41,204 bases of DNA from Methanobacteriota archaeon. Its GTDB lineage: Archaea; Altiarchaeota; Altiarchaeia; IMC4; SCGC-AAA252-I15. The translations under genes and the position numbers were made by a program. The stretch covers positions 1-41,204 of the forward strand of contig JBDRAY010000067.1 of NCBI GenBank assembly GCA_043823295.1, read 5' to 3'. Under the pieces are notes generated by a model. The model worked only from the letters and a program-made list of their open reading frames with translations, did not search any database and was not told where the DNA came from. How positions within the stretch are numbered: position 1 is the first letter of the stretch; every line of letters begins with the position of its first letter. Below are positions 1,434 to 1,760 of the stretch, piece by piece.

Positions 1434-1549
1434 GTAAAGTAATCACTCCATGTGAATAAATGTATTGAGGTCAGTTAAGCATGTATTTTACGTGATAGAA
1501 TCGTAAATCTGAAATAATCGATAGACTGTAGGCCTTTTTAGTGGGAAGG

Positions 1550-1623
1550 TGCCGCCGGGGGGATTTGAACCCCCGACACCTCGGTCTTCAGCCGAGTGCT
1601 CTCCCAATCTGAGCTACAGCGGC
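1550..1623 (-). tRNA. tRNA-Phe (GAA)
   Basis: Minus strand GCCGCTGTAGCTCAGATTGGGAGAGCACTCGGCTGAAGACCGAGGTGTCGGGGGTTCAAATCCCCCCGGCGGCA forms a cloverleaf with anticodon GAA and no intron. Confidence 0.97.
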
Positions 1624-1692
1624 GTTTTGTGCTGTGGGACCGTAGCGTCAGCGGAGGTCGTACTCGCGTGTGCACGGAGCGAGCCGTGCGCT

Positions 1693-1723
1693 GAGTGCTC
1701 TCCCAATCTGAGCTACAGCGGCG
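1693..1723 (-). repeat. Exact 31-bp duplicate of the tRNA-Phe 5' part
   Basis: GAGTGCTCTCCCAATCTGAGCTACAGCGGCG occurs at both 1594-1624 and 1693-1723 (99-bp period). Confidence 0.95.
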
Positions 1724-1746
1724 CAAACTTTTTAGGAAAAAGTTTG

Positions 1747-1760
1747 ATTAAAACCTTTTC
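1747..1760 (-). promoter_or_regulatory. Putative BRE/TATA promoter of the tRNA-Phe locus
   Basis: Minus strand GAAAAGGTTTTAAT about 25 nt upstream of the duplicated tRNA 5' end; similar to the motif before porG. Confidence 0.5.

Follow-up and report, generated by a model that had tools for sequence, protein, structure and literature searches.

A 65-nt structured element between a duplicated 5′ end and the intact tRNA-Phe gene of an Altiarchaeota genome, probably a small non-autonomous mobile insertion

This study concerns a tRNA-Phe gene in a 41,204-nt stretch of archaeal DNA (contig JBDRAY010000067.1 of the Altiarchaeota assembly GCA_043823295.1; the whole stretch is hereafter called the window). 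The first part of this gene occurs a second time just upstream, separated from the gene by a short GC-rich insert, and the question raised is how a tRNA gene came to stand behind a copy of its own 5′ end. The genome, in 156 contigs, has 1.75 Mb and is 87.6% complete. The insert, designated E, is regarded with good confidence as a small non-autonomous mobile insertion that duplicated part of its target and kept the gene whole, and the family to which it belongs is apparently undescribed.

The exact 31-bp repeat reported in a first-pass annotation of the window was found as described, with two copies (1594–1624 and 1693–1723), and a 31-mer match appeared in none of 100 dinucleotide shuffles of the window. 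The repeat could be extended to 34 nt (1591–1624 and 1690–1723) with one mismatch at 1593/1692, and sequence search gave no third copy in the window or the genome. The right-hand copy is part of an intact gene, the sole tRNA-Phe found in the genome by ARAGORN. The left-hand copy, called here the stump, spans the acceptor 5′ strand, the D-arm, the 5′ strand of the anticodon stem, and the first base of the anticodon loop. It differs from the gene by a single G to A change at 1692 (anticodon stem, standard position 30) that would disrupt a stem pair; the stump is a dead, non-functional copy.

On the tRNA strand, the order is TATA-like box, palindrome, stump (1723→1690), the GC-rich 65-nt insert (1689→1625), and the gene. 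The TATA-like box TTTTAATC sits in an AT-rich region and no AT-rich stretch was seen between the stump and the intact gene. Judged from its sequence and place, TTTTAATC is likely the native tRNA-Phe promoter. Since the sole AT-rich promoter-like sequence precedes the stump, tRNA-Phe is presumably made with a 99-nt leader consisting of the stump and E. In the series of events favoured here, the 65-nt non-coding structured E would have been inserted after the 33rd nt of the tRNA-Phe gene, with the preceding 34 nt duplicated on both sides; the left copy would keep the native promoter and the right copy would continue into the gene. The transcript from the native promoter would then read stump, E, and tRNA, and RNase P would presumably free the tRNA from its leader. 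A full-length match resembling archaeal RNase P RNA was obtained at C36:5341–5645 (39 bits, E-value 7e-10, family cut-off 84), which may be a divergent RNase P RNA.

Two features of the insert noted in the first-pass annotation, the hairpins GCACGG/CCGTGC and GACC/GGTC, are present and predicted to fold, and the pairing proposed there between GTACTC and GAGTGC stood in five of six pairs by sequence reading, one pair failing. In the predicted fold of the precursor, the stump pairs with the tRNA 3′ acceptor strand and with the apical segment of E, and this fold is not exceptional (z = −1.86). The suggestion that a competing fold controls tRNA maturation received no specific support, given this z-score and the occurrence of E also 3′ of tRNAs, antisense to tRNAs, and at the ends of protein genes.

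Another reading took the fragment in front of E for a 5′ half belonging to a split, trans-spliced tRNA, or the duplication for a product of assembly. The fragment does lie behind the promoter and does end in the anticodon loop, as a 5′ half might. However, the intact gene directly follows it, the stump carries the stem-breaking change, and no sequence complementary to the spacer and no separate tRNA-Phe 3′ half were present in the genome. The same layout was also found in an independent 143-kb metagenome contig (L118) that shares the neighbouring MFS transporter and PTP phosphatase genes with the window: the stump, including the identical G to A change, is followed by a 67-nt copy of E and then by tRNA-Phe, a finding that speaks against an artefact of assembly. 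Dozens of other assemblies contain analogous layouts. Contigs assembled from one sequencing run gave only short tRNA-like pieces from other organisms and so, at the level of reads, count neither for nor against an artefact. Both the split tRNA and the artefact were therefore rejected as far as sequence can go, and we regard them as extremely improbable.

The insertion reading offered in the first-pass annotation, that of a mini-element whose entry restored the tRNA, was in turn supported by the finding that the spacer belongs to a repeated, conserved family with target duplications at many loci. Its first 25–28 nt were found at five other loci of the genome, which has in total 6 canonical copies of E and 2 expanded ones, the latter with expansions of approximately 50 nt after the first hairpin. 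At each of the 6 canonical copies, the 25-mer directly adjoins a piece of a tRNA gene. In tRNA-Met(CAU), tRNA-Thr(UGU), and tRNA-Arg(GCG), a 5′ fragment of 16–21 nt is followed by E, a spacer, and a full tRNA of the same kind. In tRNA-Arg(UCG) and tRNA-Ser(GCU), E begins 1–3 nt past the discriminator base of a complete tRNA, and the last 18–21 nt of the tRNA, from the T-loop, are repeated 126 or 652 nt later. A search for decayed copies in the genome gave no further matches at ≤7 mismatches with the fold kept. At the tRNA-Ser(GCU) locus, the 652-nt insert downstream of the gene contains a 175-aa hydrophobic open reading frame (ORF) without a Pfam match. On the minus strand of the same contig (C64:8900–9450), a second Ser(GCU)-like copy, with an insert of approximately 58 nt in the T-loop and a mismatch in the acceptor stem, lies upstream of the intact tRNA-Ser(GCU).

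The insertions were then compared over 68 distinct copies, obtained by dropping those identical in the first 60 nt and including orthologous copies in related genomes. In 39 of the 68, a flanking repeat was observed, that is, the sequence ending 0–7 nt before E recurs after the insert. The repeats had a median length of 23 nt (range 11–80) and the inserts one of 105 nt (range 53–652). No extra base was present at the E 5′ junction in 25 of the 39 repeat-flanked copies, and 1–7 unmatched bases were present in the other 14. The conserved end of E is exact and the opposite end is ragged and variable; the two ends are unlike each other and terminal inverted repeats are absent. ARAGORN results in 69 rows gave a same-strand tRNA starting 66–317 nt after the start of E (25 rows), a same-strand tRNA ending 0–2 nt before E (6), E within the tRNA span (2), a same-strand tRNA farther upstream (2), antisense tRNAs only (9), and no tRNA (25). 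The breakpoints of the 5′ fragments fall after nt 10–12, 15–20, about 27, and about 33, positions at the D-stem end, in the D-loop, and where the anticodon loop starts. Repeats of 3′ parts begin in the T-loop and end 1–3 nt (once 8 nt) past the discriminator base, never with CCA. Some duplications extend 19–41 nt upstream of the tRNA.

Protein genes were hit as well. In several genomes, the conserved end of E adjoins an ATG on the opposite strand and the first 11–80 nt of the gene are repeated after the insert; in a helicase-like gene of another genome, the last 30 or so codons are duplicated. That surviving insertions lie near gene ends is no more than selection alone can explain, since only there does a short duplication keep the gene whole. 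At such loci (L012, L021, L022, and L068/L093), the complement of the E loop on the gene strand reads GGAGCGAG and starts 14 nt before the ATG; by its sequence it could be a ribosome-binding site. Two further arrangements were a tandem array of the form repeat-E-repeat-E-repeat (L060) and a copy (L015) forming an intron of approximately 80 nt in tRNA-Arg(GCG), located where the anticodon loop meets the 3′ strand of its stem and lacking a duplication; through its 3′ part this intron pairs with the anticodon loop.

The same duplications bear on the possibility that the locus is the scar of an integrase-type element, a virus or plasmid carrying the 5′ part of a tRNA gene, that was later almost wholly deleted. 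A 34-nt direct repeat of part of a tRNA does flank the insert, and partial tRNA duplications around insertions are the classic mark of such events, the Caldiarchaeum tRNA-Thr case being an example (PMC3293823). Against this, the insert has only 65 nt and no ORF, no third copy of the repeat exists in the window or genome, no Phage_integrase match was found in the genome, exact matches to the E core were absent from viral contigs, and a short conserved element recurs at many targets with repeats of differing length. A scar of this type is largely refuted by the ORF-less insert, its recurrence, and the absent integrase match, and is considered very improbable. The comment in the first-pass annotation that integration scars usually duplicate tRNA 3′ ends is fair; in the E family, both 5′ and 3′ parts are duplicated.

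The E family was defined by a 25-nt sequence, G-N-ACGG-CUCGCU-CCGU-N′-C-ACAC-GCG, at one exact end, followed by a hairpin. The window copy (Table 1) has 25/25 consensus bases, 6/6 pairs of hairpin P1, and 5/5 pairs of the pseudoknot formed between the P1 loop and GCGAG. Among 35 distinct 27-mers, which were collected with a mismatch-limited pattern so that the visible variation is capped, the helix of nt 1–6 with 13–18 and the loop pairs 9–11 with 23–25 were paired in 96.8% of cells. Changes on both sides were seen in 5 of the 9 pairs of the conserved domain; for example, pair 2–17 occurs as C-G, A-U, and G-C, and pair 9–25 as C-G, U-A, and A-U. None of 500 shuffled controls reached any of the observed pairing measures, and partners slid out of register were 14–61% paired.

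Downstream of the conserved domain, E has at least five classes of 3′ domain, which follow lineage, and most classes have a GCAC-like 3′ tail. In 15 class I copies, 5 of the 8 pairs of the hairpin after the 5′ domain were changed on both sides. In 10 class III copies, including that of the window, the outer helix of the variable hairpin P3 was 76.7% paired, with two-sided changes in 4 of 6 pairs, on a structure hand-drawn from the same sequences used for the count; RNAalifold run on the class III copies did not call this hairpin. The P3 of the L118 copy has one mismatch fewer than that of the window copy. Class I copies have a second GCGAG able to pair with the whole loop. In the class I copy of contig C50, a G to A change in the loop is matched by a C to U change in the partner second GCGAG, and another class I change favours a small local hairpin over the pairing with the second GCGAG; alternative pairings in class I are therefore conceivable.

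Table 1 Features of the tRNA-Phe locus in the window (positions in nt of the window)
Feature	Position	Strand	Basis
Intact intron-less tRNA-Phe(GAA)	1548..1623	− (reads 1623→1548)	ARAGORN; Rfam tRNA model, 66.2 bits
Right target-duplication copy: base −1 + first 33 nt of intact gene	1591..1624	−	Repeat comparison
Element E, 65 nt, class III, inserted sequence	1625..1689	−	First 25–28 nt recur elsewhere
3′ tail of E, CAGCACAAAA	1625..1634	−	Sequence comparison
Variable hairpin P3 (GUACGACC ... GGUCCCAC), two mismatches	1635..1662	−	Predicted fold
P3 apical part, CCGCUGACGCUACGG	within 1635..1662	−	Predicted fold
Conserved 5′ domain of E	1663..1689	−	Hairpin + pseudoknot, covariation
GCGAG	1667–1663	−	Pairs with loop, H-type pseudoknot
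Linker ACAC	1671–1668	−	Conserved 5′ domain
P1 loop CUCGCU	1683–1678	−	Pairs with GCGAG
P1 hairpin of E	1689–1684 pairs 1677–1672	−	Covariation
Left target-duplication copy (stump): base −1 + tRNA-Phe nt 1–33	1690..1723	−	Repeat comparison
Perfect 10-bp palindrome CAAACTTTTT / AAAAAGTTTG, 3-nt loop	1724..1746	.	Inverted-repeat search
TATA-like box TTTTAATC	1746..1753	−	Read from sequence, 24–31 nt 5′ of stump G+1

Such conservation could also be expected if E were chiefly a working RNA of the tRNA transcript, in one version a signal for processing, self-cleaving or recognised by an enzyme, with the cut at exactly its own 5′ edge; this would free the stump in 5′ insertions or trim the tRNA 3′ trailer where E comes after a tRNA, and E would be kept because the host now depends on it; this would be compatible with a mobile origin. 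In favour of this explanation, the 25-nt domain is identical both in orthologues that differ in their diverged 3′ domains and flanks and in records from several phyla, the genome lacks decayed copies, the conserved end is precise to a single base at all junctions, and six copies begin 0–2 nt past a tRNA end. Moreover, removal of the stump could matter, as it competes for the tRNA 3′ acceptor strand in the predicted fold; a cut at the first base of E, by E itself or by an enzyme, would remove this competition and would explain the extreme conservation. On the other hand, no Rfam family, whether ribozyme or other, matched E at an E-value ≤1 (window) or ≤5 (12 other loci), and this includes the models of known self-cleaving ribozymes (hepatitis delta virus (HDV)-like, hatchet, pistol, twister, and hammerhead). 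The helix order of the HDV-like fold apparently cannot be mapped onto E, which also counts against this explanation. E is further found antisense to tRNAs and protein genes, where such an RNA would not serve the gene. By manual count, G·U and A·C departures from the helices are about equally frequent and, consequently, the strand that folds or works is not evident. That E serves chiefly in this way is considered possible but not probable.

E was sought in relatives with the 25-mer at ≤3 mismatches, the reversed pattern giving 0 matches as the control. It was detected in 14 of 41 relatives; over the phylum, 14 of the 61 genomes had it, with 1–6 copies per genome. By family, it was present in 10 of 20 genomes of the family f1 (besides the genome of the window), 2 of 22 of f5, 1 of 1 of f7, and none of 12 of f8 and f9 together, and the distribution was patchy within genera. 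The exact 22-nt core was found in 29 stretches of a species-representative genome collection and 21 stretches of metagenome contigs; viral contigs gave 0 exact matches. Most of the records from the genome collection are titled Candidatus Altiarchaeales or Altiarchaeota, with other titles being Thermoplasmatota, Nanoarchaeota, Woesearchaeota, and Methanosarcinales. One Microbacterium record with the core was taken as a chance match.

Empty sites were identified in relatives. The tRNA-Phe of a genome of the same genus has neither stump nor E, and E is missing from two orthologues of the helicase-like target gene. Outside the tRNA, the flanks of the window locus could not be aligned at the DNA level with those of relatives, L118 excepted. 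Several occupied sites are shared: in tRNA-Thr(UGU), E follows the same 18th base in the present genome, a genome of another genus, and a metagenome contig; the 33-nt tRNA-Phe stump with a class III E is present in the window, in L118, in another metagenome contig (L116), and in a genome of another family; and copies in tRNA-Arg(GCG) too lie at the same position in different genera. Among orthologous copies, the 25-nt domain is unchanged or compensated, the hairpins change with compensation, and the flanks diverge. At the tRNA-Thr and tRNA-Arg loci of the present genome, the stump has the base of the full gene in the other genus or species. The stump may thus preserve an older state, as read from these sequences; conversion between repeat copies is the alternative.

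Comparison of the two repeat copies in the helicase-like gene showed 13 differences, of which 12 have a three-base spacing, and nearly all lie at third codon positions. Third positions in the copy joined to the gene body turn from GC-rich to AT-rich immediately ahead of E. The native stop codon and the syntenic gene downstream remain with the detached copy, which is closer to an orthologue (about 85% vs 75%, manual count from alignments). These differences, including the switch in codon usage, indicate that E-bearing alleles have also spread between lineages together with flanking homologous DNA.

On sequence grounds, the membership of a family, the fold, the pattern of duplication, the patchy distribution, and the existence of old orthologous copies are established, and from these we infer that E is or was mobile. 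Several observations weigh against mobility. The occurrence of E in the same tRNA at the same position in different genera means that many copies are old and vertically inherited. The absence of decayed copies is as compatible with conservation for a cis function as with mobility. No match to the TnpB zinc-ribbon domain, Y1 transposase, LAGLIDADG_3, or the tyrosine recombinase family PF00589 (Phage_integrase) was found in the genome at its 87.6% completeness, serine recombinases lying outside this search. No mobile-element enzyme was recognised in the 52 of 65 ORFs (≥110 aa) scanned around E at 16 metagenome loci; these 52 encode housekeeping proteins or belong to no family. Among the 41 relatives, 4 had a reverse transcriptase (RVT_1), but just 1 of the 14 E-bearing genomes did, these being incomplete metagenome-assembled genomes, with unbinned elements outside the scope of the search.

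As for the way in which E may have moved, the insertion signature (an exact structured end, a ragged end, duplications of variable length, filler bases, and a preference for tRNAs mostly in the sense orientation) resembles retroposition, judging by these sequence features, more than the action of any DNA transposase or integrase known to us. E might move via RNA in the manner of a short interspersed nuclear element (SINE), an RNA with a defined 5′ end being copied into DNA at nicked tRNA genes. The variable duplication length (11–80 nt), one exact and one variable end, the 1–7 unmatched bases at the conserved end in 14 of 39 copies, the breakpoints at the end of the D-stem and in the D-, anticodon, and T-loops, and the mostly sense orientation to tRNAs are consistent with this route. 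It is opposed by the failure to find a reverse transcriptase in 13 of the 14 E-bearing genomes, by the 3′ junctions that never include CCA, by the duplications that at times reach 19–41 nt upstream of the tRNA, and by the apparent lack of specificity of A-rich 3′ ends. Regarding the last point, the final 12 nt of the inserts contained 181 A and 91 T and the native flank upstream of the left repeat contained 162 A and 107 T; an A-rich tail thus does not appear to be specific to E, native tRNA upstream flanks being A-rich as well. This route is judged rather doubtful. Integration of small circles containing the repeat and E by homologous recombination, or a host pathway of another kind, could also be at work. 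Pairing of the variable part of E with its own target was rejected as a rule, own pairs giving a mean duplex energy of −21.3 and cross pairs one of −21.0 kcal/mol over 40 loci; the window copy gave −31.3, with 3% of cross pairs as good, and the L118 copy −24.9, with 26%.

Introns in the tRNA genes of the genome share parts with E. ARAGORN detected 13 tRNAs without the intron option and 28 with introns allowed, and 15 of these 28 genes have introns of 19–169 nt at or near the canonical site. The introns are built from a few repeated structured modules. One module holds the internal motif of the class III E hairpin, and a relative has an E copy whose 3′ domain equals another of the modules.

Several side observations concern these modules and the tRNA-Phe locus. 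Intron modules occur outside tRNAs too, for instance after the tRNA-Phe of a genome of the same genus. The palindrome at 1724–1746, located between TATA-like box and stump, is similar to a hairpin standing at the beginning of one intron module of the same genome. In L118, the tRNA-Phe of the region syntenic to window positions 1500–1760 (L118:2499–2800) contains a canonical intron of 77 nt composed of a repeated module, and the window gene is intron-less; this is a difference in intron presence between near relatives. L116 has three tRNA-Phe starts in tandem, consisting of a 33-nt stump with E, a 12-nt stump with another module-type insert, and a gene at the contig end, and this locus represents a series of insertions, one after another, into a single gene.

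A second small element family was also observed in the genome. It is marked by a 19-nt hairpin, GTCGTCGGC-NAAY-TCCGAC, located next to duplicated target pieces, and has nine sites (contigs C21, C43, C50, C64, C71, C112, C115, C129, and C141). At C43 (approximately 330–420), a run of nine T/A is present with 22-nt direct repeats of the 5′ end of tRNA-Arg(CCU). In the opposite orientation, this hairpin also forms the closing part of the long E inserts in C71 and C50.

How archaeal tRNA genes came by their introns, fragments, and split forms has long been an open question, and the one documented natural case of intron and fragment gain involves a 1.9-kb element. The folded E of 57–65 nt does likewise at many tRNA genes, as leader, trailer, or intron. 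With modules common to canonical introns and base-for-base conservation across distant archaea, it provides a concrete system for studying how introns and fragments arise, and it is also a compact, strongly conserved pseudoknot whose partner may be an enzyme or the RNA itself. In addition, stumps like that of tRNA-Phe can mislead tRNA annotation and searches for split tRNAs. A bolder proposal, which we put forward as speculative and unlikely, is that the pseudoknot and hairpin of E are a new catalytic or processing RNA defining its own 5′ end, and that E and its sister family are RNA-mediated mini-elements that colonise archaeal tRNA genes harmlessly and become leaders, trailers, or introns, a living source of tRNA introns and orphan fragments.

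Literature searches, in which subscription-only papers were outside the coverage, yielded no description of an E-like element; several known systems resemble it in part. Partial tRNA duplications of the attL/attR type are left by integrase-bearing viruses, plasmids, and islands, the foreign DNA being flanked by direct repeats and the gene remaining intact. The E loci are alike in having partial-tRNA direct repeats around an insert with the gene intact. They differ in that no integrase or large element accompanies E, the length of the repeat is not constant, duplication affects 5′ parts as often as 3′ parts, and the starts and ends of protein genes are hit too.

Archaeal tRNA introns are excised at bulge-helix-bulge motifs, and those at unusual positions are thought to transpose in Thermoproteales. 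L015 sits as an intron in the anticodon loop, where its removal restores the cloverleaf as with such introns, and 3′ domains of E are common to the canonical introns of the genome. The window copy differs, since it lies in the 5′ leader outside the mature tRNA, is flanked by a duplication, and neither requires nor evidently has a motif of this kind.

SINEs and other retroposons without long terminal repeats, R2 elements with a ribozyme at the 5′ end, and ribozymes located just 3′ of phage tRNAs form another group for comparison. With these, E shares small non-coding size, variable duplication, one exact end, preference for tRNAs, and co-transcription with the host gene. The differences are the archaeal hosts and that no partner reverse transcriptase, specific A-tail, or ribozyme-family match was found for E.

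MITEs, or miniature inverted-repeat transposable elements, are similarly tiny, non-coding, and multi-copy, and, in a MITE survey, the highest density of conserved MITEs among archaea is that of Candidatus Altiarchaeum hamiconexum (PMC11602168), from the same group of organisms. Unlike MITEs, E has neither terminal inverted repeats nor duplications of fixed length (11–80 nt); the elements of that survey may or may not include E.

The closest likeness is to the tRNA-Thr(GGU) locus of Caldiarchaeum subterraneum, for which a 5′ fragment (nt 1–27), a 1,868-bp insertion, and a complete tRNA are described (Sugahara et al. 2012, PMC3293823). There the insert has an ORF for a predicted DNA-binding/recombinase protein and is repeated six times, and the authors link the layout to intron gain and scattered tRNA fragments (PMC3293823). 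The order of fragment, insert, and complete tRNA is the same as in the window, and in both cases the fragment keeps the upstream flank. The Caldiarchaeum insert is different from E in having 1,868 bp and an ORF; E has 65 nt without an ORF, a 25-nt pseudoknot, and a distribution over several archaeal phyla.

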